Below are positions 25,861 to 42,576 of a DNA stretch of 64,000 nt, piece by piece (position 1 is the stretch's first letter; each line of letters opens with the position of its first letter). The notes under the pieces were generated by a model. It was not told the origin of the DNA, did not search any database, and saw only the letters and a program-made list of their open reading frames with translations. This DNA is from Bacillota bacterium. Its GTDB lineage: Bacteria > Bacillota > Clostridia > Christensenellales > SZUA-584. Both the position numbers and the translations under genes were made by a program. The stretch spans positions 113,321 through 177,320 of the forward strand of contig JAEWTL010000038.1 of assembly GCA_023459495.1 (NCBI GenBank). The letters are read 5' to 3'.

Positions 25861-26808
25861 TTAAGCAAATCTTTTCCAAGCGGCTTTTGCCTTTTCCGCA
25901 ATGACCTCAGCCGTCATACCGTAGGCCTCCATAATCTCAGGCAGCGGGCCGGAACGTCCAAACATATCGTTCACACCATGCCGAATCACAGGAACGGGGC
26001 AGTTCTCGCTGATGAACTCGGAGACCGCAGCGCCCAGCCCGCCAATCACGTTATGATCCTCTGAGGTGATGATCAGCTTGGTTTCGGTGGCTGCCTTGTG
26101 CAGAATATCGGTATCAAGGGGCTTGATCGTATGCATATCGATCACGCGGGCGGAGATCCCCGCCGCAGCCAGCATTTGCGCGGCTTTGAGCGATTCCTGC
26201 ACCATCACGCCCGTCGCGACGATGGTGATGTCGCTTCCGTCCCGCAGCGTGACGCCCTTGCCAAGTTCAAACTGATAACCGTTAATCGCCTCCGTTACGT
26301 TTTCGACGGCTGAGCGCCCAAGTCGCATGTATACCGGGCCTTCGTAATCGATCATCGCCTTCAACGCGGCTTGCGTCTCGTTCGCGTCACAGGGGCTCAA
26401 AACCGTCATTCCCGGTATAACGCGCATCAGTGCAATGTCCTCAATACACTGGTGGGTTGCCCCGTCCTCCCCCGCGCTGAGTCCCGAATGGGTTCCGACA
26501 ATCTTAACGTTCAGGTGCGGATAGCAGACGGAGTTGCGAACCTGATCGTAGATGCGGCCCGTGCTGAACATGGCAAACGAGTTGATGATCGGTATCTTTC
26601 CGCACGTCGCTGTACCTGCGGCGTAACCGGCCATATTGCATTCTGAAATGCCCATGTTGAAGAACCGTTCCGGACATACCGCCTGAAACTCGCAGGATTG
26701 CGTGGCGCACGCAAGGTCCGCATCGAACACGATAACCCGCTCGTTTTCTTTGCCGTATTGGGCGAGCGCTTTGCCATAAGCCACCCTTGTGGATATCATT
26801 TCACCCAT
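25861..26808 (-). CDS. Transketolase, C-terminal (pyrimidine-binding) subunit
   Basis: The split-TK B subunit begins MGEMISTRVAYGKAL. Its start overlaps the stop of the A subunit as TGATG. Confidence 0.88.
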   Translation of the reverse strand: MGEMISTRVAYGKALAQYGKENERVIVFDADLACATQSCEFQAVCPERFFNMGISECNMAGYAAGTATCGKIPIINSFAMFSTGRIYDQVRNSVCYPHLNVKIVGTHSGLSAGEDGATHQCIEDIALMRVIPGMTVLSPCDANETQAALKAMIDYEGPVYMRLGRSAVENVTEAINGYQFELGKGVTLRDGSDITIVATGVMVQESLKAAQMLAAAGISARVIDMHTIKPLDTDILHKAATETKLIITSEDHNVIGGLGAAVSEFISENCPVPVIRHGVNDMFGRSGPLPEIMEAYGMTAEVIAEKAKAAWKRFA

Positions 26809-27647
26809 CACTTCGCCTCCAACTCTTCCAGGGAACACAGCAATTCGGCCTTCGCAAGGCAGTACTGCTGCTCATCAGGCGTATGCCCGTGCCATTGCAC
26901 GTCGTTTTCCATAAAAGAAACGCCTTTTCCCTTGGCGGTTTTGGCGAGGATCATGGTCGGCTTCCCCTTGCAGGCCTCGGCCGCGTCCAGCGCCCGGATA
27001 ATCGCTTCATAGTCGTGCCCGTCGATCACAATCACGTTCCAGCCGAACGCTTCCCATTTCTTATCCAGCGGTTCGATTGGCATAACCTCGGCGGTCGTGC
27101 CGTCAATCTGCAGTCCGTTTACATCGATAAACCCGCACAGATTGTCTAGCTTGTATTTGGCGGCAGCCATCGCCGCCTCCCAAATCTGGCCTTCCTGTAT
27201 TTCACCGTCTCCCATGATGGCATAGACGCGATACGGCCTGTTGTCGAGCTTTCCCGCAAGCGCCATGCCGCTCGCGGCAGACAGCCCCTGTCCAAGCGAA
27301 CCTGCGGACATGTCAACGCCCTTGATATGCGTCATCTCCACGTGGCCGGACATACGCCCCTTTGCGCTGCGAAACAGCTTAAGATCATCTTCCGGGAAAA
27401 AACCCTTGAGCGCCAGCACCGGATACAACGCGGGCGTACAATGCCCTTTGGAAAGGACCAGCCGGTCGCGGTCCAGGTTCTTTGGGTCTTTGGGGTCCAC
27501 AACCATTCGTTCAAAATAGAGAACAGTCAGAATATCCAATACGGAGAACGAGCCGCCTATATGTCCGGAATGACAGCAGTTTATTGTTTCCAGACCCATC
27601 AATCGCAGTTTGGCCGCCGTTTTGGCCAGACTTTTCACATCGTGCAC
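26808..27647 (-). CDS. Transketolase, N-terminal (TPP-binding) subunit
   Basis: 279 aa. CHSGHIGGSFS and the TPP motif GDGEIQEGQIWEA. Confidence 0.88.
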   Translation of the reverse strand: MHDVKSLAKTAAKLRLMGLETINCCHSGHIGGSFSVLDILTVLYFERMVVDPKDPKNLDRDRLVLSKGHCTPALYPVLALKGFFPEDDLKLFRSAKGRMSGHVEMTHIKGVDMSAGSLGQGLSAASGMALAGKLDNRPYRVYAIMGDGEIQEGQIWEAAMAAAKYKLDNLCGFIDVNGLQIDGTTAEVMPIEPLDKKWEAFGWNVIVIDGHDYEAIIRALDAAEACKGKPTMILAKTAKGKGVSFMENDVQWHGHTPDEQQYCLAKAELLCSLEELEAK

Positions 27648-27781
27648 TGCTCATGCTTCCTTTCAAAAACGCTTGCACGGACTTTTACGGTATACAAACT
27701 AAGAGCGGCAGGCATAATCGTTCAAAACGATCGAATATGCCTCACCACGATACTAAAAATCCGTTCTATTTCTAAAGCAAC

Positions 27782-27803
27782 GAAGGTGCGTTTTGCACCT
27801 TCC
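27782..27803 (-). terminator. Stem-loop immediately after the aldolase-like gene (possible terminator or processing site)
   Basis: GAAGGTGC-GTTT-TGCACCTTC inverted repeat directly downstream of the stop at 27805. The T-tract is only modest (GTTGCTTTAG on the transcribed strand). Confidence 0.45.
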
Positions 27804-27804
27804 C

Positions 27805-28485
27805 CTACCTTTTACGCGTTACCTCTTCCGGCATGGGGGCTTTCCCCTGGCCGTAGTATTTGAATACGTCAACCGCCTGCTCAACCTGTGCGGGCGTCAG
27901 CTGTGCGACCTGGTCGCTCATGCTCCGCGCGTATACATAGGTCTTCGCCGCTTCCTCAAGGTACACACACGCATAAAGGGCTTCTTTCAGCGTGGTACCC
28001 AGCGCGATTACGCCATGGTTCTTGAGTATGACGGCAAGCTGGTCTCCGGCATGTTCAACCGTATGGATTCCCATATCGATGCTGGCGGCGGATGCGAACG
28101 GGAGCACCTTAACCGGGCCCTTTGTCGCATTCGGCAGCGTCGTTACAATGCAGGGCAGCTCGTCTGCTACAAGGCCCACCGCGGTCGCAACCGGCTGATG
28201 CGTATGGATCACGGCATTGATGTGCGGCATGTGCTTGTAGATATATAACAAAGCCCCGGTGTCAACCGAAGCGGACCGGGTCCCCTCTATCACGTTGCCT
28301 TCAATATCGACCACCAGAATATCTTCCGCGACCATATCCTCATAGATCATGCCGGACGGTGTAACCAGTATTTCACCGGTGCTCATCCGGGCGCTGACGT
28401 TGCCGCCGGACAATGCGATCAGTCCGTACCGGTCAAGCTTCAAAGCCGCATGGATAACTTGCTTTCTTTCATTCTCGAATTTCAT
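27805..28485 (-). CDS. Class II aldolase/adducin-family protein (L-ribulose-5-P 4-epimerase or fuculose/deoxy-sugar-1-P aldolase-like)
   Basis: 226 aa. SGGNVSAR, the metal-binding HTHQP, and NHGVIALG. Confidence 0.8.
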   Translation of the reverse strand: MKFENERKQVIHAALKLDRYGLIALSGGNVSARMSTGEILVTPSGMIYEDMVAEDILVVDIEGNVIEGTRSASVDTGALLYIYKHMPHINAVIHTHQPVATAVGLVADELPCIVTTLPNATKGPVKVLPFASAASIDMGIHTVEHAGDQLAVILKNHGVIALGTTLKEALYACVYLEEAAKTYVYARSMSDQVAQLTPAQVEQAVDVFKYYGQGKAPMPEEVTRKR

Positions 28486-28536
28486 CGAGCATCATCCTTT
28501 CACTTTTGATAACGCATCGCGCTATCACGCTTATCC

Positions 28537-28574
28537 GCCGCGGCAGCGGAACTGCGGAAGCCAGCTGCCGCGGC
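28537..28574 (-). promoter_or_regulatory. GC-rich intercistronic stem-loop between the PLP-enzyme and aldolase-like genes
   Basis: GCCGCGGCAGC (28537-28547) pairs with GCTGCCGCGGC (28564-28574). 16-nt loop, no clear U-tract. Confidence 0.5.
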
Positions 28575-28589
28575 AAATAAACGAACGTT

Positions 28590-29783
28590 TTACTTAATCA
28601 GACTGAGCGCGTGCTTCAGGCTGTCGATGATATCCTCCACGTCCTCGATACCCACGGAAAGGCGTACCAGGCCGTCGTCAATGCCCATCTTCGCGCGGTC
28701 TTCGGGCTTTAGCATACCGTGCGTCATGAGCGGCGGCTGCTGAATCATGGTGTCGCAATCGCCGAGGCTGACGCAGTACTTGGCGATTTCCACGTTGTCC
28801 GAGAACGTGGTGGCGTTTTTAAGGCCGCCCTTGACGATGAACGACATCATGCCGCCGAAGCCGCTGTCGCCGAACATCCGCTTCGCAAGCTCATGATCGG
28901 GATGACTCTCGAGGCCCGGATACGCGACGCTCTCGATTTGCGGCTGCTGCTGCAGCCACTTGGCGACGGTGAGCGCGTTTGCCGAATGCTCGCGCATGCG
29001 CAGATGCAGCGTCTTCAGACCACGCAGCATCAGCCAGCAGCTGAACGGGCTGGGAACCGGGCCGAGCTCCTGATAGATGGACGCGCGGATCTTGTCCACA
29101 TAGCTTGCCTTGCCCGCGATGGCTCCGCCGATGAGGTCCCCGTGTCCGTTGATGTACTTCGTGGTGCTGTGCACAACCACGTCCACGCCATGCTCAATAG
29201 GACGGACCATGTACGGGGTCGTAAACGTGCTGTCCACGATGGAAAGCAGGTTGAACTTCTTTGCGCAGGCCGAAAAGGCATCCAGATCCAGCACCTTCAT
29301 GGTCGGGTTCGCAACGGTTTCTGCGTACAGGACCTTCGTGTTGGGTCTTATCGCTTTCTGAACCGTGGCTTCCGAGAAATCTTCCACGAACGTGACTTCG
29401 ATCTTGAACTCTTCAAATATCTGAGTAAACAGCTTGAACGAACCGCTGTAGATCGTCTTGTACGCGATTACGTGGTCGCCTGTCTGCGCCGCGTTCAGCA
29501 CGGCAAGCGAGATGGCCGCCATACCCGAAGCGGTTACAAGGCAGCGCTCCGCGCCTTCAAGGCTCGCGATCTTGGCTTGGAGGTCGTTCTGCGTTGGGTT
29601 TCTGGAACGTCCATACGTGAAGATCCCTTCCTTGTCGCCGGAAAGATAGCGATCCCGTGTTTCCGGATCCCAGCAATACGTGCTGGTCATATGCATAGGC
29701 GCCAAAAGGGCTCCCGTAGCCGGATCAATCGCCTGACCCGCATGGACCGCTCTGGTTCCAAACTTCGCATTCTCCATGTTCAT
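28590..29783 (-). CDS. Cys/Met-metabolism PLP-dependent enzyme (methionine gamma-lyase / cystathionine gamma-lyase/synthase family)
   Basis: 397 aa. FGTRAVHAG, YGRSRNPT, and the PLP-lysine motif HSTTKYINGHGD. Confidence 0.85.
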   Translation of the reverse strand: MNMENAKFGTRAVHAGQAIDPATGALLAPMHMTSTYCWDPETRDRYLSGDKEGIFTYGRSRNPTQNDLQAKIASLEGAERCLVTASGMAAISLAVLNAAQTGDHVIAYKTIYSGSFKLFTQIFEEFKIEVTFVEDFSEATVQKAIRPNTKVLYAETVANPTMKVLDLDAFSACAKKFNLLSIVDSTFTTPYMVRPIEHGVDVVVHSTTKYINGHGDLIGGAIAGKASYVDKIRASIYQELGPVPSPFSCWLMLRGLKTLHLRMREHSANALTVAKWLQQQPQIESVAYPGLESHPDHELAKRMFGDSGFGGMMSFIVKGGLKNATTFSDNVEIAKYCVSLGDCDTMIQQPPLMTHGMLKPEDRAKMGIDDGLVRLSVGIEDVEDIIDSLKHALSLIK

Positions 29784-29793
29784 TGTAAAAACC

Positions 29794-30849
29794 TCACTTA
29801 TCGTTAATTTTAATTACAACTTTAATGTGCTTCGGGCCGTTCTTGATCAGCTCTTCAAAGCCGTCCTCCACAAGCGTATCCAGCGTAACCTCACGCGTAA
29901 TCAGCTCGTCCGCATCGATAAGCCCGCGCGATATGTAATCCAACGCAACGCCGATCTCGTCGACATGTGCCTGAGAGGTATACATCTTGCGCTCGCCTTC
30001 CTGAAAGTCATTCATGGGGAACACCGGCGGCTTTTCAAATACGCCCATCACCATGAGCTTTGCACCCGGCTTCATCACGCTGATGGAGCTGTCCAGCGTA
30101 CGCTGCGAACCCACACACTCGTAAACCACGCCCGCCATCTTGCTATCCGACCATGCCGCCACGGCTTCTTTGAGATCGGTTTTCGCGACATCAATGTACG
30201 TTCCGCCGTAACGCTCGATAAGTTCCTTGCGGTCTTCGCCCACACCTCCAACCAACACCTTACCGGCTCCCGCAAGCTTTGCGGCGAGGAAGCAGCCAAG
30301 CCCGATGATCCCGGGGCCGACAACCACGACATCTTCGCCGGTGATATCGCCCATCAGCCGCGTTGAGTGAATGCCGCACGCGATGGGTTCCGCCAGCGCC
30401 GCCTGCCGAAGCGTCACGTTATCCGGGATTTTGAACAGCCTTGCGGCCTCCACCTCGACATATTCAGCAAACGCGCCGTCGAGGCCTACGCCGAGGAAAC
30501 CCAGCTTCTCGCAGACGTTGTAGCGTCCGCTGCGGCACATTTCGCATTTCCCGCAGCACAGCGTGCCGTTTGCCGTCACACGGTCCGATACCTTCCAGTC
30601 GGTGACGCCTTCGCCTATCGCGCTGATCACGCCGGAGAATTCGTGGCCGATGGTAAGCGGCGCGGTCTTTCCGGTTAAGCGGTGCGGCTTGGTGACAGGT
30701 ATAAAATTCGGGCCGGTATATTCATGGCGGTCCGTTCCGCAGATTCCAGCCCATGCGACGGCAATTACAACGTGGCCGGGCTTCGGCTGGGGAGCCGGAA
30801 CATCACTGATTCGTATATCCTTGTATCCGTGCCATACTGCAGCTTTCAT
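29794..30849 (-). CDS. Zn-dependent medium-chain dehydrogenase (butanediol/polyol dehydrogenase-like)
   Basis: 351 aa. GICGTDRHE, GHEFSG, and structural-Zn cysteines CGKCEMCRSGRYNVC. Confidence 0.85.
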   Translation of the reverse strand: MKAAVWHGYKDIRISDVPAPQPKPGHVVIAVAWAGICGTDRHEYTGPNFIPVTKPHRLTGKTAPLTIGHEFSGVISAIGEGVTDWKVSDRVTANGTLCCGKCEMCRSGRYNVCEKLGFLGVGLDGAFAEYVEVEAARLFKIPDNVTLRQAALAEPIACGIHSTRLMGDITGEDVVVVGPGIIGLGCFLAAKLAGAGKVLVGGVGEDRKELIERYGGTYIDVAKTDLKEAVAAWSDSKMAGVVYECVGSQRTLDSSISVMKPGAKLMVMGVFEKPPVFPMNDFQEGERKMYTSQAHVDEIGVALDYISRGLIDADELITREVTLDTLVEDGFEELIKNGPKHIKVVIKINDK

Positions 30850-31829
30850 CAGCAGCCTCCTTCGAAAAACAGCTTGAACAGCCTGTTCAATATATTGCTG
30901 GGCTTGGCTTCTGTGCCCGTAACAAAATCCTTGGGCAGCTTATCGGTGACGAATTTAAGCACAGCATTGATAAATGTGATGGAGGCTTCGCAAGCCGCGT
31001 CCGGATCGTCACGGTACGGGTAAATATCGAGCGAATACCAGCCATCGTAGCCCAGACGTTCCATCCAGTAGAAAAACTCGATATACTGCGCCCAGTGCAC
31101 ACTGCCCACGGGCATATCATCGTCCGCGATGCGGTAGTTATCGTTCAGATGCACATGAAAGAGCCGCTTCTGTGAATGCAGGATTGCAGCGACTTCGGCG
31201 ATGTTCTCCCCGGCGTTCATCGCATGCCCCACGTCGAGTGTAACGCCGACATTCGCACAGCCCGTAGCCTGAGACACCGCCAGCGCCATGCCTGCGTTTT
31301 TGATCATGCAGCTGAGCTTGGGTTCGGAAACCTTGTACTCCAGGCCAAGGTTCACGTTCGGGTTGTAGCTTGCGCACTCCTTAAGTGTTTCCACGAGATA
31401 ATCGTACGCTTTGACGTAATCGTTCTGAAACAGGTAATCGAACCCGTCCTGACCGAGCCACAGGCTGACGGTTTTAACACCGATGCTCTGCGCAAAATCC
31501 ATCGCCTTTTTCACAAGGCTTACCGACTTCGCCCTTCTGGCGGAGTCCATGGCGGACAGCGAACCGTCTTTCCATTCCTTATCGCAAACCAGCTCCACGC
31601 CCATGCCGATGATACTAAGGCCACCTTCTGCTAATATCGGCTTGATATTTTCGTAGGTATCTTCGTTGCAGTCGCAGGGATAGGTGATTTCCACACCGCT
31701 GATACCGCTGAGCTTGCCGATAGCGCGCAGCCGGTCTTCAAATTTCATATAGGGCTTATATCCCTCGCCGACGTAGCGGTCGGTACCCATGCCGTAATCC
31801 CAAACGCCCACGCTCAACTTGTTATTCAC
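30849..31829 (-). CDS. Xylose-isomerase-like TIM-barrel sugar (phosphate) isomerase/epimerase
   Basis: 326 aa. GLEYKVSEP, TLDVGH and HVHLNDN metal-ligand-like motifs of the AP-endonuclease-2/xylose-isomerase-like fold. Confidence 0.7.
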   Translation of the reverse strand: MNNKLSVGVWDYGMGTDRYVGEGYKPYMKFEDRLRAIGKLSGISGVEITYPCDCNEDTYENIKPILAEGGLSIIGMGVELVCDKEWKDGSLSAMDSARRAKSVSLVKKAMDFAQSIGVKTVSLWLGQDGFDYLFQNDYVKAYDYLVETLKECASYNPNVNLGLEYKVSEPKLSCMIKNAGMALAVSQATGCANVGVTLDVGHAMNAGENIAEVAAILHSQKRLFHVHLNDNYRIADDDMPVGSVHWAQYIEFFYWMERLGYDGWYSLDIYPYRDDPDAACEASITFINAVLKFVTDKLPKDFVTGTEAKPSNILNRLFKLFFEGGC

Positions 31830-31844
31830 GTAAAATCCCCCCAG

Positions 31845-33485
31845 CTATTTAATCGTTATCGAGTATGTCTTCCATCCGCCGGTCATGTTTTTGACTTTGT
31901 AGCCGTGCTGTGCAAAAATGCGTTCGGCGATATGGCCTCGCAGCCCAACCTGGCAGTACTCAATGACCTCTTTGTTTTTGTCGATCTCACCGAGCCTACC
32001 CCGAAGCTCGTCAACCGGAATATTGATGGCTCCCTCAATGTGACCGCGAGAGAACTCGTCCGGTGTCCGGACGTCAATCAGGACGGTGTTTTCCTCATCA
32101 CGGCCTGCCACATCGTTATAGTCCACAACCTCGCTTTGTCCCTCTAATATGTTCTGAGCAATATACCCCAGCATATTAACAGGATCCTTTGCAGAGGAGA
32201 ACGGCGGCGCATACGCAAGCTCAAGCTCGCACAGGTCGTAAACGGTTCCGCCCAGACGAATGACCGTTGCAATAACGTCGATGCGCTTGTCCGCACCTTC
32301 CCCGCCAACAATCTGGCAGCCAAGTATCTTTCCATCCGGCGCAAACAACAGCTTGCACGACATCTGCACCGCTCCCGGATAGTAAGTCGCATGCGAGAAC
32401 GGATGCGAATATATGGCCGTATACGGTATACCAAGCCGCTTAATGGTTCTCTCATTCGCGCCTGTAGACGCTGCAGCTAAACCAAACACCTTGATAATCG
32501 CCGTACCCTGTGTTCCGTTATAATGGCGTTCAATACCGCAGATGTTATCCGCAGCGATGCGCCCCTGCTTATTCGCGGGCCCTGCCAATGGGATCGCTGT
32601 ACGCTGGCCCGTTACAAAATCCACAACCTCAACAGCATCTCCCACCGCATATACGCCCTCTGCATTTGTCTGCATCCGGTCGTTAACAACGATGTGGCCC
32701 TTTGGCCCCAAAGCAATGCCGCTGTCCTTAAGGAATCCGGTAGCCGGAGTGACGCCGATGGCACTCAATACAAGCTCGGCTTTAATCACAGTGCCACTCT
32801 TCAGCTTAAGGGCTGCCAGTCCGTCATCCTCTTCCACAGCTTCCAGCATGTCATTCAGCACAACCTTTACGCCATGCTTCTCTAATTCTTTCTCCACCAG
32901 GATAGAGAATTCGCTGTCAAAAGGCGCGAGGATATGCGGTGCGGCTTCCACCAGGGTTACTTCTACGCCAATTTCGCGTAAATTCTCCGCGGTCTCTACA
33001 CCGATATAGCCTCCGCCAATAATTGCGGCAGACTTAATCTGGCCTTTGCCAACCTCCGCTTTAATCCTGTCCATGTCGGGTATTGTTCTCAGCGACAGCA
33101 TGCGTTCGGGGCATGTATTTTTGATCTGCGGAACGATTGGTTCTACGCCGGGCGCTAATACAAGGGTGTCGTAGCTTTCGGTGTACTCGCCCGCTTGCGC
33201 GCTGTATACTTTTACGGTCTTGGCAGCGGTATCAACACTTACAACCTTGCTGTTGGTGCGAATGTCGATGTCAAACCGGCTTTTCATAGCCGCAGGCGTC
33301 TGTACGATCAGCTTGCTGCGCTCCGTAATCGTTTCTCCGATATAATAGGGCAGACCACAGTTTGCAAACGAGATATACTCGTCTTTTTCAAACAGGATGA
33401 TCTTAGCTTCTTCATCGAGCCTTCGTAAACGTGCAGCAGCGGAAGCACCGCCCGCCACACCGCCTACAATTACTATTTTTCTCAT
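31845..33485 (-). CDS. CoA-disulfide/persulfide reductase-like FAD oxidoreductase fused to a rhodanese domain (CoADR-RHD)
   Basis: 546 aa. IVIVGGVAGGASAAARL, the active-site Cys in SFANCGLPYY, and a C-terminal rhodanese with YCQVGLRG. Confidence 0.85.
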   Translation of the reverse strand: MRKIVIVGGVAGGASAAARLRRLDEEAKIILFEKDEYISFANCGLPYYIGETITERSKLIVQTPAAMKSRFDIDIRTNSKVVSVDTAAKTVKVYSAQAGEYTESYDTLVLAPGVEPIVPQIKNTCPERMLSLRTIPDMDRIKAEVGKGQIKSAAIIGGGYIGVETAENLREIGVEVTLVEAAPHILAPFDSEFSILVEKELEKHGVKVVLNDMLEAVEEDDGLAALKLKSGTVIKAELVLSAIGVTPATGFLKDSGIALGPKGHIVVNDRMQTNAEGVYAVGDAVEVVDFVTGQRTAIPLAGPANKQGRIAADNICGIERHYNGTQGTAIIKVFGLAAASTGANERTIKRLGIPYTAIYSHPFSHATYYPGAVQMSCKLLFAPDGKILGCQIVGGEGADKRIDVIATVIRLGGTVYDLCELELAYAPPFSSAKDPVNMLGYIAQNILEGQSEVVDYNDVAGRDEENTVLIDVRTPDEFSRGHIEGAINIPVDELRGRLGEIDKNKEVIEYCQVGLRGHIAERIFAQHGYKVKNMTGGWKTYSITIK

Positions 33486-34423: not shown

Positions 34424-34446
34424 TTCTATCGAGAACCCTTCTTTAG

Positions 34447-35532: not shown

Positions 35533-37011
35533 TCATCGCTCAAGCGAACGCCAATTCCAAAAATCCAGCATGTTATCTTTTAAGGCAATAAACTGCTCGT
35601 ACATCGCTTCAAACTTCTCGCTCTCCGTCGGTTCGGGAATGAACACATCCGCTTCCTCGGCACACCGTATGGGATCTGGGCTCATATTGAGTCCAATCTT
35701 CACCGCTTCGACTATGCCTCTTGCCGCAAGCTCCTCATGGTTAGGCCGTACAACCTCCTTGCGCAGGGCATTTGCGATCAGCTGGCAGAGGAGATCGCTT
35801 TTGGAGCCTCCTCCGGACAGATAGACCTTACCATCGGTTTTGGGAAGCGCATTGTAGCAATCCTTGAGCGAGAGTACCATGCCTTCGTAAACTGCTCGCA
35901 TCATTTCGATGCGGGTATGACGCGCGGTCAGCCCATAGAAGCCGCCGCAGGCGAAAGAGTTCCGAAAGGGAGCCCTCTCTCCGCAAATGTATGGATGATA
36001 GATGATACCGTTGCTTCCGGTTTTAATCGTGCTGAGCTGCTGATTCAGTTCAGCGAAACTCATATCAGGCGCGAGTATCCTCTTTGCCCAGTCGATTGTG
36101 GAACTGCCGCTCAATGCCGCCATTACGCGCACGAACTTGCCGTCATACACGCTGCACAGCGCGCTGCCGTTCCGGTCATGGATATCCACCTGTGACGCGT
36201 CGATCAATATCTCGTTGCAAAGCGTCGTTCCCAGTATCGCGCAGCCGTCACCCACATGGGTCACGCCAGCGCCTAGCGTTGTAATGACCACATCGATGCC
36301 CCCCGCGATGAGCGGAACACCCTCCGGTATGCCGCTTTGCTCGCTTCCGGCTGGACTGACCGTACCGATTATATCGGTCGGGGCAATCAGGCGAGGCATC
36401 ATGGCTTTCGCTTCCGGGATGTCCAGAAAGTCAAACAGCTCCTGGACATACTCATGAGTGAACACGTTAATTCCGCAGGTTGAAAAATCCGTGTAGTCAC
36501 TCGCAATGACTCCAGTCAGCTTGAAATTGAGCCAATCTTTGCAGCGAAAGACCGTACCGAAACGCGCATACCGTTCAGGTTCTCTAAGCTTATTCCATTT
36601 TAATATCAGAGGGAAAGCACCAGCAAAAAGCGCTGTAGAGGAGTGCTTAACAAGAAGGTCGTTGAGCGCATCCTCGTTGATGCCTTCCAATACTCTGGTT
36701 CTCGTATCATTCCATAAAATTGCGTTGCCCACGGGCCGGCCCTGCTTGTCAATCGCCCACATGCCGTCGCCCTGGGCTGATATCCCGGCGCCTTCTATCT
36801 GTTTCCAGGCATCCGGGTTCCGCAATTTCAGCTGTTTCGTCAAACAGCAAAGCTTATCCCAAAGTGCATCCATATCCATCTCGGATGCGCCGTCAAACGG
36901 CATTTGCACCTCGGTTGCACAACTCTCCACGTCGAGAATCGTACCGCAGGAATCGGCCAAAACAGCCTTGACGTTGGTTGTGCCAACGTCCATTCCCAAG
37001 AGTATTGCCAT
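35533..37011 (-). CDS. FGGY-family carbohydrate kinase (xylulokinase/L-xylulose-kinase-like)
   Basis: 492 aa. N-terminus LGMDVGTTNVKAV and the FGGY C-terminal motif YLSGGGSKSDL. Confidence 0.85.
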   Translation of the reverse strand: MAILLGMDVGTTNVKAVLADSCGTILDVESCATEVQMPFDGASEMDMDALWDKLCCLTKQLKLRNPDAWKQIEGAGISAQGDGMWAIDKQGRPVGNAILWNDTRTRVLEGINEDALNDLLVKHSSTALFAGAFPLILKWNKLREPERYARFGTVFRCKDWLNFKLTGVIASDYTDFSTCGINVFTHEYVQELFDFLDIPEAKAMMPRLIAPTDIIGTVSPAGSEQSGIPEGVPLIAGGIDVVITTLGAGVTHVGDGCAILGTTLCNEILIDASQVDIHDRNGSALCSVYDGKFVRVMAALSGSSTIDWAKRILAPDMSFAELNQQLSTIKTGSNGIIYHPYICGERAPFRNSFACGGFYGLTARHTRIEMMRAVYEGMVLSLKDCYNALPKTDGKVYLSGGGSKSDLLCQLIANALRKEVVRPNHEELAARGIVEAVKIGLNMSPDPIRCAEEADVFIPEPTESEKFEAMYEQFIALKDNMLDFWNWRSLER

Positions 37012-37017
37012 TTTAAT

Positions 37018-37719
37018 TTAATCTCCCAAATACGCTTTACCTAACGAATCATCCGCGAGAATCTCTTCCCGTGTACCGGATTTTTCAATTAATCCAACCG
37101 AAAGTATGTAAGCCCGGTGGCATATCGAAAGCGCTTTGAACGCGTTCTGCTCCACGATCATGATCGCAGTTCCGGCTTTGTTGATCTCCGTAATGATCTC
37201 AAAGATCTGGTTCACGATGATCGGGGCAAGACCCAAAGACGGTTCGTCAAGCATCATCAGCTTCGGGCGGGCCATGATGCCGCGGCTGATCGCCAGCATC
37301 TGCTGCTCACCGCCGCTCAGGTGCCCTCCATACTGGTGTTCACGCTCCTTCAAACGGGGAAAAAGGGTGTACACTTTTTCGAGGTCCTCTTTTATCCCTT
37401 TTATGTCTTTCCGCAAAAAAGCGCCGACCATAAGGTTGTCGTAAACCGTAAGGTGGGTAAATATCTGCCGTCCCTCCGGAACATGTACAAGGCCCATTCC
37501 CACCACGTCGTACTCATGCTTCGGAACCGGACTCCCGAGGAATTCGATGCTGCCCGATGTCGGCTTGACCACCGAAGAAATACTCTTCAAAAGGGTGGAC
37601 TTTCCGGCACCGTTTGATCCGAGAACGGCGACCACTTCGCCTTCGTTCACTTCCAGAGAAACGCCTTTGAGCGCCTTGATTCCGCCATAGGCGGCATGCA
37701 GATCCGTGATTTTAAGCAT
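37018..37719 (-). CDS. Branched-chain-amino-acid-type ABC transporter ATP-binding protein (LivF-like)
   Basis: 233 aa. GSNGAGKST, LSGGEQQMLAISRG, MLDEPSLGLAP. Confidence 0.88.
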   Translation of the reverse strand: MLKITDLHAAYGGIKALKGVSLEVNEGEVVAVLGSNGAGKSTLLKSISSVVKPTSGSIEFLGSPVPKHEYDVVGMGLVHVPEGRQIFTHLTVYDNLMVGAFLRKDIKGIKEDLEKVYTLFPRLKEREHQYGGHLSGGEQQMLAISRGIMARPKLMMLDEPSLGLAPIIVNQIFEIITEINKAGTAIMIVEQNAFKALSICHRAYILSVGLIEKSGTREEILADDSLGKAYLGD

Positions 37720-38485
37720 GCTCTACACCTCCCAGATAAGCCTCGATTACAATCGGGTTGCTTTTTACCTCAGCAGGTGAACCCGAAGCGATGGTCTTGC
37801 CAAAATTCAGAACCGTCACGGAGTCGCAAAGGTTTGTCACAACGTCCATATGATGCTCGATCATCAGAATCGTCAGTTTAAAATGCTCCTTAATTTTCGT
37901 CACGAACTCCACCAGTTCCGCTGATTCGTCTGCATTCATGCCTGCAGCGGGTTCATCCAGCAGCAGCAGCTTAGGATTAAGCGCAATTGCCCTTGCGATT
38001 TCCAGCTTGCGCTGATGGCCATATGGCAGCTTACACGCGGTTTCGTCCCGGTTATCTTCCAGACCGACCGCTTTGAGCAGCACCATTGCCTTCTCAACGA
38101 TTTGCTTTTCTGTCCGGCGGTAGCGCGGTGTTCTCAAGAGCGCATCCAACATGTTATATTTGGCGTCCATGTTGCTGGCCAGTACCACGTTTTGCAGTAC
38201 ATTCATGTTGGAAAACAAGCGGATATTCTGGAATGTACGCCCGATACCCATCTGCGCGATGGTATGCGGTTTCTTACCGGTAATATTGTGTCCGTTAAAT
38301 GTAATGGTCCCGCTGTCAGGCGTCAAAATGCCTGTAATATTGTTGAATATTGTGGTCTTGCCCGCACCGTTAGGACCGATTAACCCATGCACTTTTCCCG
38401 GTTCAATCTGGACACTGAAATCATCGATTGCTTTAACACCGCCAAAGTTTTTGCAGACATTTTTGATCTCTAATACCGGTGTCAT
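37712..38485 (-). CDS. Branched-chain-amino-acid-type ABC transporter ATP-binding protein (LivG-like)
   Basis: 257 aa. GPNGAGKTT, LPYGHQRKLEIARA, LLDEPAAGMN. Confidence 0.88.
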   Translation of the reverse strand: MTPVLEIKNVCKNFGGVKAIDDFSVQIEPGKVHGLIGPNGAGKTTIFNNITGILTPDSGTITFNGHNITGKKPHTIAQMGIGRTFQNIRLFSNMNVLQNVVLASNMDAKYNMLDALLRTPRYRRTEKQIVEKAMVLLKAVGLEDNRDETACKLPYGHQRKLEIARAIALNPKLLLLDEPAAGMNADESAELVEFVTKIKEHFKLTILMIEHHMDVVTNLCDSVTVLNFGKTIASGSPAEVKSNPIVIEAYLGGVEHA

Positions 38486-39369
38486 TTCTGCACCCCCTTA
38501 GCATTATCGCGTGATAGCTTCTTTTTCAGGAATGCGTAAATCTTCTTTACGGAAAATTCCTTATAACCCAGCAAACCCGAGGGACGTAGAATGATGATGA
38601 GCACAACGGCCAGGCCGTAGAAAAACATTCGATAGTTCGCAAGGGACCGGAAAATTTCCGGCAATATCGTAACCACCAGCGAACCCAGAATGGACCCGGT
38701 CAAACTGCCCAGTCCGCCGATAACCACCGTAATGGTGAGCTCTGCCGATTTGGGAAGGTTAAACATCACGGGAGAAAGGAACATCAGGTTGTGCGCATAC
38801 AGCGCGCCTGCCCAGCCGGCAAACATTGCGCTGAACACGAACGCCATCTTCTTGCTCCTTGTAATGTTGATACCGACTGACTCTGCAGCAATTTCCTGCT
38901 CTCTGATCGCAGTAAAGTTACGGCCATACTTTGAGTGCACCAATGTCCACGCAATGATGATGGCCAGCACAAGGCTGATGAGCGCTACGGGCAGCGTTGT
39001 GTAATTGGGAATTCCCGACAGCCCCTGTGATCCGCCTGTGACCGGCGTAATATAATTGAAGAGCACGCGGATACATTCTCCGAAACCTAAGGTCGTAATT
39101 AAAAAGTAGTCACCTTTTAACTTCAAGGTCAGGGAGCCCAGCAGGTAACTGATAAAGCCCGCTGCGAAAATACCCGCTAAGATCGCCACAACGAACGGTA
39201 CACCCAACCGTGTGGTTAAAAGCGCCGAGGTGTACGCACCGATAGACATGAATCCAGCATTGCCGAAGGAAAATAACCGGGTAAAGCCTGTTAATACGGA
39301 AATACCTAATACGGCGATAATATTGATGCAGATTACTATGATAATACCCTGAGTATAATCAGAAAACAT
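38482..39369 (-). CDS. LivM-type ABC permease
   Basis: 295 aa, polytopic. BPD_transp_2-type sequence (FGNAGFMSIGAYT). Confidence 0.85.
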   Translation of the reverse strand: MFSDYTQGIIIVICINIIAVLGISVLTGFTRLFSFGNAGFMSIGAYTSALLTTRLGVPFVVAILAGIFAAGFISYLLGSLTLKLKGDYFLITTLGFGECIRVLFNYITPVTGGSQGLSGIPNYTTLPVALISLVLAIIIAWTLVHSKYGRNFTAIREQEIAAESVGINITRSKKMAFVFSAMFAGWAGALYAHNLMFLSPVMFNLPKSAELTITVVIGGLGSLTGSILGSLVVTILPEIFRSLANYRMFFYGLAVVLIIILRPSGLLGYKEFSVKKIYAFLKKKLSRDNAKGVQK

Positions 39370-39386
39370 CGATCTGGTTCTCCTTT

Positions 39387-40259
39387 CTAGGCTTTCTCTT
39401 CTACATCAACACCCATCAAGCCGCTAGGTTTGATCAAAAGGATCGCAATGAGTAAGGTAAATGTGATCAGATCACGCAATCCGGAGTTGAGGTAACCGGA
39501 AACCATTACCTCGATAACGCCGATTATGATTGCACCGACAATTGCTCCCCGAACGCTGCCCAGGCCGCCAAATACGGAAGCAATGAACGCTTTGAGTCCG
39601 ATATTGCCCATCGTCGGATATACATTGTACTTTAGGCCCAGCAGAACACCCGCTACACCGGCAAGCGCACCGGCAATCATGAACACTGCAGCAAACGTCT
39701 TGTTAACATTTATTCCTAATAATCCGGCAGTCGAGCTGTTTGAAGCAATTGCCCGTACGCCAAGACCAAACTTTGACTTTGTAATAACGATCTCAAGTAT
39801 AATCAGCGCTACCGCTGCAACCCCTAATGTAATCAGATCCAAGAGACCAATACGCAGGTCTCCGATGCTGATTGAAGAAAGGGGCAGAACCGGCGGGAAC
39901 TGCTGAAATTTTGCGCCAAACAGAAGCATTGCTCCGTTTTGAAACACGATGGAAATGCCCATCGCCGCAATCATCAGAAACATGGTTGGAGATTTATTTT
40001 CACGAATTCGCCGATATCCCAGTCTCTCGTTCAAAAAGCTGATAACGCCCGCGCCCAATATGCCTATGATCGCTGCCACTATAAAAGGCAGTTTTAATGA
40101 TGCTACGAATAGCAATGAGATGTACGCACCCGCCATCGCAACCTCACCGTGTGCCCAGTTGGAAAAACCCAGCAAACTGTAGATGAGCGCATATCCGGAC
40201 GCAATCAAAGCATAAACACCGCCGACTGAAATCCCGTTAATAAGCTGTTGTAGAAACAT
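39387..40259 (-). CDS. LivH-type ABC permease
   Basis: 290 aa. MFLQQLINGISVGGVYALIASGYALIY is the classic LivH N-terminus. Confidence 0.88.
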   Translation of the reverse strand: MFLQQLINGISVGGVYALIASGYALIYSLLGFSNWAHGEVAMAGAYISLLFVASLKLPFIVAAIIGILGAGVISFLNERLGYRRIRENKSPTMFLMIAAMGISIVFQNGAMLLFGAKFQQFPPVLPLSSISIGDLRIGLLDLITLGVAAVALIILEIVITKSKFGLGVRAIASNSSTAGLLGINVNKTFAAVFMIAGALAGVAGVLLGLKYNVYPTMGNIGLKAFIASVFGGLGSVRGAIVGAIIIGVIEVMVSGYLNSGLRDLITFTLLIAILLIKPSGLMGVDVEEKA

Positions 40260-40277
40260 ATTCTTACCCCTCGTGTT

Positions 40278-40320
40278 AACAAGGGTGGGGGGGAGGAATA
40301 AATCCCCCCTGCCCTTTGTT
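40278..40320 (-). promoter_or_regulatory. Imperfect G/C-rich stem-loop after the binding-protein gene
   Basis: AACAAGGGTGGGGGGG...CCCCCCTGCCCTTTGTT, with a few mismatches. It lies between the binding-protein stop and the livH-like start. Confidence 0.5.
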
Positions 40321-40357
40321 ACTAGACCCTACTGAGTCAGTTTATCGTATCAGCCGA

Positions 40358-41575
40358 TTACTGATACATTTCAACGTATACTTCGTTTTCGCCTTCGATC
40401 GTGAAGATCGCAAGCTCTCTCTGCGGGTTGTGAGTTGCCGGATCAATCGACATTTCGCCAATCAGACCCTTGAAGGAAGTGGTGTTTTCCAGTGCGTCAC
40501 GGAGAACTTCAGGATCCGTGGAACCAGTCTGCTCGATGCACTGAACGATCCAGAGGAGGCCATCGTTTCCAAAGAGGCATTCGCCTTCCAGAGCGATGTT
40601 ATACTCAGCCTGATATTCTTCGCCGTAAGCTTTGGCTTCCGGTGTGTTAAATCCAGGACGCGAGCAGAAGATTGCACCTTCCAGCGCACCGCCGGCCAGG
40701 GTGGGCAGTTCCATGGAATCCCAACCGTCGAAGCCGACAAACTGACAGGTCAGACCGAGCTCTCTCGCCTGCTTGGCAATCAGGGCCACATCGCTGTAAA
40801 TCCAGGGGATGAACAGGACTTCAGGATCAGCCTGAGCGATCTTGGAAAGCTGCGCACGGTAATCGTTGTCGCCAGAGTTCGCTTCTTCGCTCGCAACGAT
40901 CGTGCCGCCGCCCGCTTCGAAAGCATCCACAGCATACTTGGAAACGCCCACGGAGTAAGAGTCGCCAATGTTCGTCAGGATCGCAGCCGATTTAACGCCC
41001 TTATCCAGCATGTACTGAGCCATCTTCGTTCCCTGGAAGGAATCGATGAAGCACAGACGGAAGGAATACGGATGCAGGTTTCCGTTTTCGTCCACAGTCA
41101 CCAGCTCGTTGGAGCAAGCCGTGCCGATGAGCGGAATCTTTTTAACATCCGCAACAGCCGCCATGGGGATGTTGCAGCTTGAGAAGTTCGTGCCGACAAC
41201 CGCGATGACATTGTACTCGTCAACGAGCTTGTTGTAAGCATTAACGGAGTCCTGCGGATCGCCGCGTCCGTCGAGACCGATGACTTCAATCTGTCTTCCC
41301 AGCACACCACCAGCCGCATTGATCTTCTTTGCGGTTAAAAGCATGCCGTTAAGTCCAGCCTGGCCCCAAAGTGCGGTATCGCCGGAGAGGGCAGAAACAT
41401 AACCGATTTTAATGGTTTCTGTATCTGCGGAGGCCGAAGAGTCAGCGGGTGCCGAAGCCTCAGTTGAGGTTGAAACTTCCGTGCCGGACGTATTCGACGA
41501 AGCAGCCGAATTACAACCCGCAAACAGAGACACAACCAAGGACAGGATTGCAATAATAGCAATCATTTTTTTCAT
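40358..41575 (-). CDS. Liv-type (Peripla_BP_6-like) substrate-binding lipoprotein
   Basis: 405 aa. Lipobox LFAGCN, a Ser/Thr-rich linker, and IKIGYVSALSGDTALWG, typical of LivJ/K-like binding proteins. Confidence 0.85.
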   Translation of the reverse strand: MKKMIAIIAILSLVVSLFAGCNSAASSNTSGTEVSTSTEASAPADSSASADTETIKIGYVSALSGDTALWGQAGLNGMLLTAKKINAAGGVLGRQIEVIGLDGRGDPQDSVNAYNKLVDEYNVIAVVGTNFSSCNIPMAAVADVKKIPLIGTACSNELVTVDENGNLHPYSFRLCFIDSFQGTKMAQYMLDKGVKSAAILTNIGDSYSVGVSKYAVDAFEAGGGTIVASEEANSGDNDYRAQLSKIAQADPEVLFIPWIYSDVALIAKQARELGLTCQFVGFDGWDSMELPTLAGGALEGAIFCSRPGFNTPEAKAYGEEYQAEYNIALEGECLFGNDGLLWIVQCIEQTGSTDPEVLRDALENTTSFKGLIGEMSIDPATHNPQRELAIFTIEGENEVYVEMYQ

Positions 41576-41634
41576 AGGGTTCTTTCCTCCTCATTTTTTA
41601 TAAGAAGTGTTAATACACTTCAGACTGAATTCAA

Positions 41635-42576
41635 TTACTCGGATGCCAACCTTTTTTCCAGCTCTTTGGCTATTGAAGTATCGATCACAAGAATATCGAT
41701 ACAGCCCGTTTTAAGGGCGCCATACACTGCATCCGATTTTCCCTTTTCACCTGCAATTGCGACAACGGTCGGTATCTTCTGGAGCGTATCCATATCAACT
41801 CCCACCACGCGGTCCTGCAATTGAAGCGTGCCAAAGTCGCCATCTTTCTTGAAATGATTGAAGCATATATCCCCTATATATCCTGCCTCAATCAACCTGC
41901 TGCGGTCATCATCGCTTAAAAAGCCTTCGGCTACAATCGTTGACTTGTCGCTAAGCTCGCCGACACCCATAATGGCGATGTTGCATTCCTTGATTCTTTC
42001 AAAAGCCTGTTTATAGAAATCTTCTTTGGCCATCTCTTTGACCAGTTCACTGCTCATGGTGGCAGGCGCATAGAGTATGCTGTAATCGCATCCAAGCTTC
42101 ATTGCAAGCATGCGCGTAATTTCATCCGGTTTGATGGAGTGGTTGGAGGTGTTGACTCCGCCAACCAGTTGAACGACATGGCTGTTGGCCTTATTGGCCG
42201 GGCGCATATACCGTATGGTTTCACCCAGCGTGATTCCCCAGGAGACGCCGATTTTATCGCCATCCTGAATAAAATCATCCAGAAACTCCCCGGCCTTCTT
42301 TCCGAGTACATTCAATACGGGCAGATCGCTTTGTTCGGTATCAGCAATGATAACCTGCTTAAGGGAAAACCGCTGTTCGATCAAGCTTTCTAAAACTACA
42401 TCTTCGCTTTCTAAACCGTTAATGGTAATGCTGACAATGCCGTCCTCAATAAGTGAATTAACAAGCTTATTAACCCTTTGGCGGGACATGTGAAGCTTAT
42501 TTGCAATCTGTTCCTGGGTCATACCCACTTTGTAGTACCAGTATGCAATTTTGACCAGCGTCTTTCTTTCAAGCAT
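41635..42576 (-). CDS. SorC/DeoR(CggR)-family sugar-binding transcriptional regulator
   Basis: 313 aa. N-terminal HTH (GMTQEQIANKLHMSRQRVNKLV) plus a sugar-phosphate-binding-type domain. It is the first gene of the minus-strand string. Confidence 0.82.
   Translation of the reverse strand: MLERKTLVKIAYWYYKVGMTQEQIANKLHMSRQRVNKLVNSLIEDGIVSITINGLESEDVVLESLIEQRFSLKQVIIADTEQSDLPVLNVLGKKAGEFLDDFIQDGDKIGVSWGITLGETIRYMRPANKANSHVVQLVGGVNTSNHSIKPDEITRMLAMKLGCDYSILYAPATMSSELVKEMAKEDFYKQAFERIKECNIAIMGVGELSDKSTIVAEGFLSDDDRSRLIEAGYIGDICFNHFKKDGDFGTLQLQDRVVGVDMDTLQKIPTVVAIAGEKGKSDAVYGALKTGCIDILVIDTSIAKELEKRLASE

Follow-up and report, generated by a model that had tools for sequence, protein, structure and literature searches.

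Every cell makes S-adenosylhomocysteine (SAH) and its ribosyl product, S-ribosyl-L-homocysteine (SRH), which is released by SAH nucleosidase and is the precursor of autoinducer 2 (AI-2). A 2024 paper on the dihydroxyacetone phosphate (DHAP) shunt describes SAH as universally recycled by the methyl cycle (PMC10986504). The shunt itself, in which a ribose blocked at C5 is turned by MtnK/DrdK and MtnA/DrdI into a ketose phosphate that Ald2/DrdA splits into DHAP and an aldehyde, the latter then being reduced, is known for methylthioribose and 5-deoxyribose and not for an amino-acid conjugate (PMC6079011, PMC10986504). Here we describe a gene cluster in a 64-kb stretch of a Bacillota genome (Christensenellales, SZUA-584; assembly GCA_023459495.1, contig JAEWTL010000038.1, positions 113,321 to 177,320; hereafter the window, in whose numbering all window coordinates are given, on the minus strand unless marked otherwise). 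Under a SorC-type regulator the cluster joins an amino-acid-type ATP-binding cassette (ABC) importer to sugar enzymes and to a lyase-family enzyme dependent on pyridoxal 5'-phosphate (PLP). Most likely these genes work as a single unit on an amino acid that bears a sugar. Our leading reading takes SRH or a close analogue as the substrate, and we would give it a probability of roughly 0.45 on the basis of family membership and gene neighbourhood. In the full-text literature searched we found neither a description of this cluster nor any catabolic pathway for SRH.

The strongest evidence for a single unit is its conservation. The mid-cluster triosephosphate isomerase (TIM) barrel gene served as seed; 842 homologues were found, 26 of them were aligned, and 80 genomic loci (numbered with the prefix L) were retrieved with 10-kb flanks, one genome per species, and searched by tblastn with every window protein. 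A core context, made up of the SorC regulator, a Liv-type importer, the xylose/rhamnose-isomerase-like TIM barrel, a Zn-dependent dehydrogenase, a Cys/Met-family PLP enzyme and an FGGY kinase, was present in every one of the 45 loci with a TIM barrel sharing 48% identity or more with that of the window, and none of it was detected by the same search in the 35 loci whose barrel is less than 46% identical. The 45 loci fall in six phyla (Spirochaetota, Bacillota, Chloroflexota, Acidobacteriota, Synergistota and Planctomycetota) and include Spirochaetia, Anaerolineae, Holophagaceae, Synergistaceae, Phycisphaerales and many Bacillota lineages, among the latter Oscillospiraceae, Lachnospiraceae, Tepidanaerobacteraceae, Thermovenabulum, Tissierellales and Caproiciproducens; four carriers are cultured or have complete genomes (Tepidanaerobacter acetatoxydans Re1, Thermovenabulum gondwanense, Ornatilinea apprima and Caproiciproducens sp. 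R1). Besides the barrel itself (45/45), the second Zn-dependent alcohol dehydrogenase of the window (ADH2) has a counterpart after the isomerase gene in 43 loci, the PLP enzyme, the FGGY kinase and the Liv-type ATPase each in 41, the binding protein in 37, and a SorC gene adjoins the cluster in 25; contig ends explain many of the missing genes, and for SorC this holds for most of the closest loci. The commonest order is SorC, binding protein, LivHMGF, TIM barrel, ADH2, PLP enzyme, FGGY kinase. Other parts of the window operon are accessory, namely the first dehydrogenase (ADH1) with a C_GCAxxG_C_C protein (21/45), a CoADR-rhodanese fusion (15/45) and a split transketolase (2/45, L011 and L028, besides the window).

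An arrangement that recurs in 45 loci of six phyla is far beyond chance. In all 41 loci that hold the three genes for the TIM barrel, ADH2 and the PLP enzyme, these are contiguous on the same strand, which argues that the PLP gene belongs to the sugar pathway and is not a mere neighbour; of the four loci without a PLP gene, three are cut by a contig end, leaving only L028 genuinely devoid of it. The link between the PLP gene and the sugar genes is thus ancient and strict, and the concern raised with the original prediction, that their co-occurrence might be unique to this genome, does not apply, the PLP gene directly following those for the isomerase and the Zn-dehydrogenase in 41 of the 45 loci. 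It also makes it very improbable indeed that unrelated operons, for amino-acid import, sugar use, cleavage of sulfur amino acids and sulfide stress, simply lie side by side: the core order is kept in six phyla with genes overlapping or nearly abutting, and a similar operator-like motif lies upstream of SorC in several lineages. What speaks for such a chance adjacency is confined to gaps of 104 and 157 nt and a weak hairpin near the aldolase-fold and transketolase genes, and to accessory genes that differ between lineages.

The isomerase gene (30849-31829) encodes an AP_endonuc_2 TIM barrel whose best NCBIfam model is L-rhamnose isomerase (90 bits) and whose nearest solved structure is the uncharacterised 3KTC (175 bits), followed by xylose and rhamnose isomerases. 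Residues invariant in the 26 aligned homologues (E164-Y-K166...E169-P, D199/H202, H227, D236/D238 and D268) align with xylose-isomerase E181/K183, E217/H220, D245 and D255/D257, that is, with the two-metal site and the catalytic lysine, the E-x-K motif having been aligned by eye across a gap in the HMMER alignment. On these residues the protein is a predicted aldose-ketose isomerase for a free reducing sugar, as opposed to a ketose-phosphate epimerase, and the motif would call for a substrate, such as a 5-substituted ribose, whose reducing end is free. The gene for ADH2 (29794-30849), overlapping the end of the isomerase gene by a single base, encodes a protein with (R,R)-butanediol dehydrogenase 6IE0 as nearest solved relative (226 bits). 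The FGGY kinase (35533-37011) belongs to a xylulokinase-like branch; it scores 278 bits with the XylB model (cut-off 380), and its nearest solved relatives are gluconate kinase and xylulokinases (about 130 bits).

These assignments bear on the pathway originally proposed, in which an L-xylulose/pentitol-type route (LyxK, SgbU/UlaE, SgbE/UlaF) would carry a sulfur-containing polyol to xylulose-5-phosphate and transketolase, with a persulfide module as an integral part. The two polyol-type Zn-dehydrogenases, the AraD-like aldolase-fold protein and the split transketolase of the window would suit it, as would a CoADR-rhodanese gene placed mid-operon. The barrel, taken there for a UlaE/SgbU-type epimerase, is instead of the two-metal xylose/rhamnose-isomerase type and scores only 29-31 bits with L-ribulose-5-phosphate 3-epimerase models (cut-offs 200-317). 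Transketolase counterparts (55-59% identical) adjoin the cluster in only two of the 45 related loci, L011 and L028, and can hardly be its core exit; the CoADR-rhodanese gene (15/45) and the C_GCAxxG_C_C/ADH1 pair (21/45) are likewise dispensable across relatives, so that neither the persulfide module nor the additional dehydrogenase is integral. Such a route would need neither an amino-acid-type importer nor an amino-acid lyase, yet both are core, and we regard it as quite improbable.

Two core components point to an amino acid. The PLP enzyme (28590-29783; Cys_Met_Meta_PP, 455 bits) retains the residues corresponding to Tyr58/Arg60, Tyr113, the catalytic Lys210, Ser339 and the alpha-carboxylate-binding Arg374 of Citrobacter methionine gamma-lyase (MGL), with Gly (motif YSGS) in place of the MGL-specific Cys115 (Cys116 in Pseudomonas). 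By these residues it is a member of the Cys/Met gamma/beta-lyase family and not a canonical MGL, for which its score is likewise too low (TIGR01328, 415.6 bits against a cut-off of 549.7).

The importer is of the HAAT (Liv) type, complete and adjacent, consisting of a Peripla_BP_6 binding lipoprotein (40358-41575; 204 bits, lipobox LFAG|C), two BPD_transp_2 permeases (LivH-like, 39387-40259; LivM-like, 38482-39369), a LivG-type ATPase with a BCA_ABC_TP_C tail (37712-38485) and a LivF-type ATPase (37018-37719). Its permease and ATPase counterparts, 54-86% identical, adjoin the cluster in 41 of the 45 loci, and a Liv-type importer, which had seemed out of place in a sugar operon, therefore co-travels with the sugar and PLP genes across relatives. 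In the alignment of the binding protein with E. coli LivK, Trp18, Ser79, Thr102 (as Ser), Tyr150 and Glu226 (as Asp) are kept in 37 of 37 orthologues; from the LivJ/LivK structures we take these to be the contacts of the alpha-amino and alpha-carboxylate groups. Leu77 and Tyr276 of the hydrophobic LivK pocket are replaced by Asn130 and Glu332, invariant in the same 37 proteins, as are Trp258, Trp285 and Asp286. Such a pocket would be expected if the side chain of the bound amino acid is polar and resembles a sugar. Specificity for Leu/Ile/Val was considered and rejected, given these two replacements and a LivJ/LivK-subfamily score of 129.5 bits against a cut-off of 477. In Tepidanaerobacter (L025, L087, L088) an Opp-type system stands in place of the Liv-type importer, next to a PepV/Sapep-type dipeptidase, which argues that the ligand is amino-acid- or peptide-like and not a plain sugar; no second, sugar-type importer recurred when all unassigned open reading frames (ORFs) of the 45 loci were clustered.

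A connection to 5-substituted ribose comes from the aldolase-fold genes of the relatives, which form two classes. In 11 loci the protein carries Glu (PSSE) and is 47-59% identical to PDB 6BTD (ten loci at 54-59%, L047 at 47%), compared with 35-45% to E. coli FucA; the two that were scanned, from L019 and L047, score above the PRK06833 cut-off. The structure 6BTD is that of DrdA, the 5-deoxyribulose-1-phosphate aldolase of 5-deoxyribose salvage (PMC6079011). In the other class, found in the window and 14 loci, Asp takes its place (PS[VI]D, as in the AraD epimerase).

A second connection is one of neighbourhood. In L028, a metagenome-assembled genome of the Oscillospiraceae, genes for the TIM barrel, both transketolase halves, the binding protein and LivHMGF form one same-strand block whose proteins are 54-64% identical to those of the window and which lacks the PLP and FGGY genes. 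Its neighbours are a DeoR-type regulator gene in divergent orientation and a gene for an MtnK equivalog (361 bits, cut-off 275), followed by one for an MtnA 85% identical to that of L090. We rejected the idea that the mtnK gene of L028 forms one operon with this block: it begins a separate, divergently regulated operon, and the link is one of neighbourhood and not of co-transcription. The corresponding operon of L090 (3668-13205; also in L028, 18993-20966, and in L089) was recovered by a metagenome scan with the L028 kinase. Under a divergent DeoR regulator it encodes an NhaC-like transporter, MtnK (366 bits, cut-off 275), MtnA (336 bits, cut-off 271), a D-2-hydroxyacid dehydrogenase, an LsrK/XylB-like FGGY kinase, a DrdA-like aldolase (269 bits, cut-off 264), an Fe-dependent alcohol dehydrogenase and a true MGL (585 bits, cut-off 549.7). 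By analogy this operon would correspond almost one to one with the core, MtnK and MtnA standing for the isomerase and FGGY kinase, the Fe-dependent enzyme for ADH2 and MGL for the PLP enzyme, and its DrdA-like aldolase and D-2-hydroxyacid dehydrogenase belong, by sequence, to the families found in relatives of the core cluster. Genuine enzymes for 5-substituted ribose thus do occur elsewhere together with a DrdA-like aldolase, a 2-hydroxyacid dehydrogenase and a Cys/Met lyase. No description of this extended DHAP-shunt operon seems to exist either.

The same operon can be turned against a conjugate altogether. If the cluster were a regulon for two nutrients related to S-adenosylmethionine (SAM), the importer, lyase and 2-oxoacid enzymes would serve methionine or homocysteine and the sugar enzymes would serve 5-methylthioribose or 5-deoxyribose through an alternative DHAP shunt; L090 does unite MtnK, MtnA and the aldolase with an equivalog-level MGL, an Opp-type importer with a dipeptidase could deliver methionine from peptides, and exogenous 5-deoxypentoses are growth substrates through the DHAP shunt (PMC10986504). 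We nevertheless consider this improbable. Where Leu/Ile/Val binders have a hydrophobic pocket, that of the binding protein is polar without exception; the PLP enzyme has no MGL cysteine and falls below the MGL cut-off, and its gene is always embedded among sugar genes. In L028, moreover, the importer shares a block with the isomerase and transketolase and not with a lyase, and no sugar-type importer recurs that could bring in the second nutrient.

A conjugate other than SRH is the more serious alternative, if still an unlikely one. The candidates would be O- or S-glycosyl serine, threonine, cysteine or homoserine from glycopeptides, or S-glycerylcysteine derived from lipoproteins; the PLP enzyme would act first, by beta- or gamma-elimination, and free a sugar for arabinose-, xylose-, fucose- or rhamnose-like processing. 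In keeping with this, the kinase is xylulokinase-like, the AraD-like Asp class is found in the window and 14 loci, with the proteins of L026 and L029 above the cut-off of the 'L-ribulose-5-phosphate 4-epimerase' subfamily, and a transketolase such as that of the window is expected if xylulose-5-phosphate is the exit; the importer and dipeptidase of Tepidanaerobacter would fit a peptide-derived residue. Such a scheme leaves unexplained both the DrdA-like aldolases and the presence of importer, isomerase and transketolase homologues beside mtnK-mtnA. A glycoside would offer no free reducing end to the isomerase before the lyase had acted, the core Zn-dehydrogenase has no role in a xylose- or arabinose-type route, and no glycosidase or peptidase gene (nor any nucleosidase gene) was recurrent among the clustered unassigned ORFs of the 45 loci. 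The only further recurrent genes there encode the D-2-hydroxyacid dehydrogenase, a cupin with a third Zn-dependent dehydrogenase, a ferredoxin subunit and acetohydroxyacid synthase (AHAS).

Several of these recurrent genes concern 2-oxoacids. The enzymes consuming 2-oxoacids that the original prediction had placed downstream flank most of the loci, which fits a lyase that yields a 2-oxoacid: a ferredoxin oxidoreductase lies beside the cluster in 11 loci, E1 genes in four and a D-2-hydroxyacid dehydrogenase in 15. Oxidoreductase genes 60-71% identical to those of the window directly follow the PLP gene or the accessory module in L004, L007, L012-L015, L017, L018, L042 and L043, and the ferredoxin subunit is recurrent in nine loci; E1 alpha homologues adjoin the cluster in L006, L024, L029 and L031. 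The D-2-hydroxyacid dehydrogenase is mostly found beside the aldolase and is nearly mutually exclusive with the ADH1/C_GCAxxG_C_C module. In the window, a four-subunit 2-oxoacid:ferredoxin oxidoreductase (gamma 25177-25761, delta 24879-25187, alpha 23685-24866, beta 22737-23672) is a probable sink for the 2-oxoacid, and the 2-oxoacid dehydrogenase complex beyond it (E1 alpha, E1 beta, E2 and E3, 17713-22671), together with an acetate/propionate-family kinase (16323-17537), is possibly associated with the operon; no phosphotransacylase was detected among the window genes scanned. A complete 2-oxoacid dehydrogenase complex beside a ferredoxin-dependent enzyme is unusual in an apparent anaerobe.

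AHAS, an enzyme that uses 2-oxobutyrate, is encoded divergently upstream of the cluster by biosynthetic large- and small-subunit genes (42971-45170, plus strand), and AHAS genes follow the oxidoreductase genes in L012-L018. This proximity may be more than coincidence. The AHAS stretch of the window has a G+C content of 0.44-0.45, compared with about 0.55 in the operon.

Taken together, the families would describe a substrate that is an alpha-amino acid with a side chain ending in a reducing sugar, the sugar being blocked at its distal carbon and held by a bond that a PLP enzyme can eliminate. SRH is, to our knowledge, the only widespread natural compound with these properties. With SRH as substrate, the Liv-type lipoprotein would bind the conjugate by both its amino-acid head group and its sugar tail, for import by the ABC system. 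The xylose/rhamnose-isomerase-like enzyme would convert the free aldose end to a ketose, which the FGGY kinase would phosphorylate and a class II aldolase-fold enzyme would split into DHAP and S-(2-oxoethyl)homocysteine, an aldehyde still bearing the amino acid. The enzyme for this cleavage would be DrdA-like in many relatives and AraD-like in the window, with the split transketolase as a second option for carbon-carbon cleavage, as in sulfo-TK sulfoglycolysis. ADH2 could then reduce the amino-acid-bearing aldehyde, and gamma-elimination by the PLP enzyme would release 2-oxobutyrate, ammonia and a small thiol, an order in which the lyase acts first being equally possible. The 2-oxobutyrate would pass through the ferredoxin oxidoreductase or the 2-oxoacid dehydrogenase complex to the acyl kinase, with a gain of ATP, or in other lineages would be reduced by the D-2-hydroxyacid dehydrogenase to 2-hydroxybutyrate. 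In the lineage of the window the CoADR-rhodanese, and perhaps also the Zn-dehydrogenase/C_GCAxxG_C_C pair, may handle the reactive sulfur product. On a broader scale it is conceivable, at somewhat less than even odds, that anaerobes of at least six phyla import environmental SRH, independently of LuxS and SahH, and use it for carbon, nitrogen, sulfur and energy through what might be called an 'amino-acid DHAP shunt', leading from the isomerase and FGGY kinase over a DrdA-like aldolase or a transketolase and an aldehyde reductase to a gamma-lyase for homocysteine thioethers.

A number of observations weigh against SRH. The window has no DrdA-like aldolase, its own aldolase-fold protein (27805-28485) being 30% identical to DrdA; it carries an AraD-like Asp motif (SVDT), with Asp at the position of the Glu that is catalytic in DrdA and FucA, scores 92-177 bits with AraD/SgbE/UlaF-type models (cut-offs 251-489), and has counterparts 71-78% identical in L006 and L011 only. 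Most of the closest loci (L004, L005, L007-L010 and L012-L018), and L037 as well, have no aldolase-fold gene within 10 kb. The nearest relatives of the kinase are xylulokinases, enzymes that phosphorylate C5, yet C5 is blocked in SRH-derived ketoses. The adjacency to mtnK-mtnA is seen in one genome (L028), and the mtnK operon of L090 stands without a Liv-type importer. The sulfur-handling CoADR-rhodanese gene is missing from 30 of the 45 loci, and the Opp-type importer and PepV-like dipeptidase of Tepidanaerobacter fit a peptide-derived modified amino acid better than SRH. Neither LuxS nor Pfs was matched by tblastn with E. coli queries in the window or any of the loci, which is a weak negative, and no SAM, SAH or T-box element was detected by Rfam at gathering thresholds in the whole window and 11 loci. 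On the other side, the idea of a sugar-amino-acid conjugate, put forward in the original prediction, has held up, and the S-ribosylhomocysteine-like class that it mentioned as speculation gains independent support from the DrdA-like aldolases and the neighbouring mtnK-mtnA operon. The only Rfam match was a c-di-GMP-I-GGC riboswitch downstream of the Caproiciproducens cluster (L019, 19691-19771; 68.8 bits, gathering threshold 59), which appears unrelated.

The accessory CoADR-rhodanese gene (31845-33485) encodes both domains, with the redox Cys in SFANCGLPY and the rhodanese Cys in EYCQVGLRG, and matches over its full length 3ICR (580 bits), 3NTA (555 bits) and the coenzyme A (CoA)-persulfide reductase 8A56 (517 bits); with the NCBIfam model for CoA-disulfide reductase it scores 478 bits against a cut-off of 578.8. 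At the level of sequence it belongs to the persulfide-reductase fusion family (CoA-persulfide or NADH-persulfide reductase type), and the presence of a bona fide member, translationally coupled mid-operon in the lineage of the window, argues that reactive sulfur is produced there. Its upstream neighbour, the C_GCAxxG_C_C protein (33482-34423; 313 aa), matches the family over residues 161-298 and has 160 additional N-terminal residues, and ADH1 (34447-35481) occurs only together with this gene. A role as sulfur-specific partner of the reductase is not supported by comparison with homologues, which also turn up in sugar- or acetone-related settings where no neighbouring genes for sulfur handling were noted: one in L084 is solitary, another, 39% identical, is part of a sugar operon in L086 with a Zn-dependent dehydrogenase and without sulfur-handling genes, and in Desulfococcus biacutus a threonine-dehydrogenase-type Zn-dependent dehydrogenase (04514) and a C_GCAxxG_C_C protein (04510) are encoded a few genes apart and are both acetone-induced (PMC4103992). 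By analogy the protein is probably the partner of a dehydrogenase rather than a sulfur enzyme. Long C_GCAxxG_C_C proteins (among them P0162, P0173, P0189, P0193 and P0204) in fact recur beside Zn-dependent dehydrogenases in unrelated contexts, and the N-terminal region of some matches Mannitol_dh_C (PF08125); they may be a generic dehydrogenase partner.

The ORF listing places all 16 consecutive minus-strand genes, from 42576 to 25861, where they had first been reported, and Pfam assigns each to the family then named. None of the 16 proteins reaches an NCBIfam equivalog cut-off, and the names xylulokinase, methionine gamma-lyase and L-ribulose-5-phosphate epimerase are thus not established. 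Between the binding-protein and PLP genes the intergenic distances range from -8 to +98 nt, with 4-nt overlaps of LivM with LivG and of the C_GCAxxG_C_C gene with CoADR. The wider gaps of 104 and 157 nt lie around the aldolase-fold and transketolase genes, which are separated from each other by the hairpin (27802-27782, weak T tail). The transketolase is encoded in an N half (26808-27647) and a C half (25861-26808/26838), for which a gene caller gives 26808 as the start. The same-strand run is real, and its supposed end at 25861 is not: about ten further genes continue it down to 16323. Terminator and promoter counts in the scanned 18-kb region were not above those of shuffled controls, and the operon boundaries are putative.

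Upstream of the regulator gene (41635-42576; HTH and sugar-phosphate-binding domains, Sugar-bind 205 bits; SorC/DeoR(Bsu) type, 208 bits with the DeoR model against a cut-off of 420), a 142-bp stretch (42604-42745) contains four GACAAATGTA boxes in two pairs, the members of a pair being 19 bp apart. All three exact copies of GACAAATGTA in the window, and one copy with a single mismatch, lie within this stretch, between the SorC start codon and a sigma-70-like promoter match (42766-42795; TTGACT, 18 nt, TATAAT; 11/12) that is the best in the 18-kb region, where the total of such matches does not exceed that of shuffled controls. Pairs with a ACAAATGT core, 18-20 bp apart, are found upstream of SorC in L004, L019, L021, L022, L035, L034/L036/L048 and L038/L039, which span five phyla (loci of Spirochaetia, Clostridia, Holophagaceae, Phycisphaerales and Anaerolineae). 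This distribution suggests that the boxes are a conserved candidate SorC operator, at which SorC might repress the operon through the GACAAATGTA boxes until a phosphosugar intermediate arises.

Some neighbouring genes deserve mention. The window also holds a flanking sugar-type ABC system (SBP_bac_1 and two BPD_transp_1 permeases), an ArsR-like HTH protein and an HDOD/HD-domain protein (11787-16249 and 46262-47122), with no evident operon link. In eight Anaerolineae (Chloroflexota) loci, in the range L026-L032, L038 and L039, a Cupin_2 protein and the third Zn-dependent dehydrogenase are encoded within the cluster (L029, L031) or otherwise as a divergent unit with a second SorC-like gene. In T. 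acetatoxydans Re1 (L087, HF563609.2, positions 463389-484579) selenium-related genes (for a SelD-like AIRS protein, a TusA-like protein, a class V aminotransferase and Se_S_carrier) and a gene for ATC_hydrolase lie upstream (306-4874), and those for the Opp-type importer, the PepV/Sapep-type dipeptidase and a serine dehydratase subunit lie downstream (12724-21191).

If SRH is indeed the substrate, the cluster would be a third branch in the salvage and catabolism of SAM by-products, besides the methylthioribose and 5-deoxyribose routes, and would provide the first catabolic fate described for SRH; a universal methylation by-product would then be a nutrient cross-fed in communities, with a bearing on the ecology of AI-2 signalling given the role of SRH as AI-2 precursor. 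Liv-type binding proteins would be able to specialise for sugar-bearing amino acids, and a large uncharacterised subfamily, annotated in metagenomes of digesters, sediments and guts as 'methionine-gamma-lyase-like' and 'sugar phosphate isomerase', would acquire a function. Should the conjugate prove to be another one, the cluster would still lend itself to clean and direct tests, with four cultured or complete-genome carriers.

Among known systems, the CoADR-rhodanese reductases (B. anthracis CoADR-RHD, Shewanella Npsr, 8A56) are relevant to one gene only: the window protein can be aligned with them over its full length and has both Cys, whereas the known examples sit in sulfide-stress or sulfur-respiration contexts and the window gene lies in a catabolic operon, between the C_GCAxxG_C_C and isomerase genes. 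Sulfoglycolysis offers a likeness in pathway logic. In the sulfo-EMP (Embden-Meyerhof-Parnas) aldolase and sulfo-TK (transketolase) routes a distally substituted sugar is isomerised, cleaved by an aldolase or a split transketolase, and the resulting C2 or C3 aldehyde reduced, and aldolase and transketolase versions occur in different lineages, as in this cluster. The substituent in sulfoglycolysis is a sulfonate, however, its importers are of the sugar type, and no PLP enzyme takes part.

With the activated methyl cycle and AI-2 system (Pfs, LuxS, Lsr) the cluster would share the metabolite SRH, if our reading is right, as well as a SorC-family regulator and an FGGY kinase. We rejected an Lsr system, as the regulator scores 131 bits with the LsrR model (cut-off 486) and the kinase 99 bits with that of LsrK (cut-off 528), Pfam finds no LsrF or LsrG families, and the binding protein is Peripla_BP_6 and not LsrB; the predicted end would differ too, being DHAP and 2-oxobutyrate instead of methionine recycling or signalling. 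L-rhamnose and L-fucose catabolism employ the same families in the same order (metal-dependent isomerase, FGGY kinase, class II aldolase, aldehyde reduction), but no RhaA, RhaB, RhaD or Fuc equivalog cut-off is reached here, and the cluster differs in its Liv-type importer, its PLP lyase and 2-oxoacid enzymes, and a Zn-dependent dehydrogenase in place of an Fe-dependent one.

Closest in logic is the DHAP shunt, through the DrdA-like aldolase of 11 loci and through the true MtnK and MtnA encoded beside homologous genes in L028/L090. Pfam finds neither an APH-family MtnK nor an (eIF-2B-like) MtnA among the 16 window genes, where the only kinase is FGGY, so that the cluster would isomerise first and then phosphorylate; the aldolase-fold protein of the window is of the Asp class, and the core adds an amino-acid-type ABC importer and a Cys/Met-family PLP lyase. 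By this analogy we infer that the cluster may extend the deoxy-sugar and DHAP-shunt logic to an amino-acid conjugate, with an importer and a lyase of its own.

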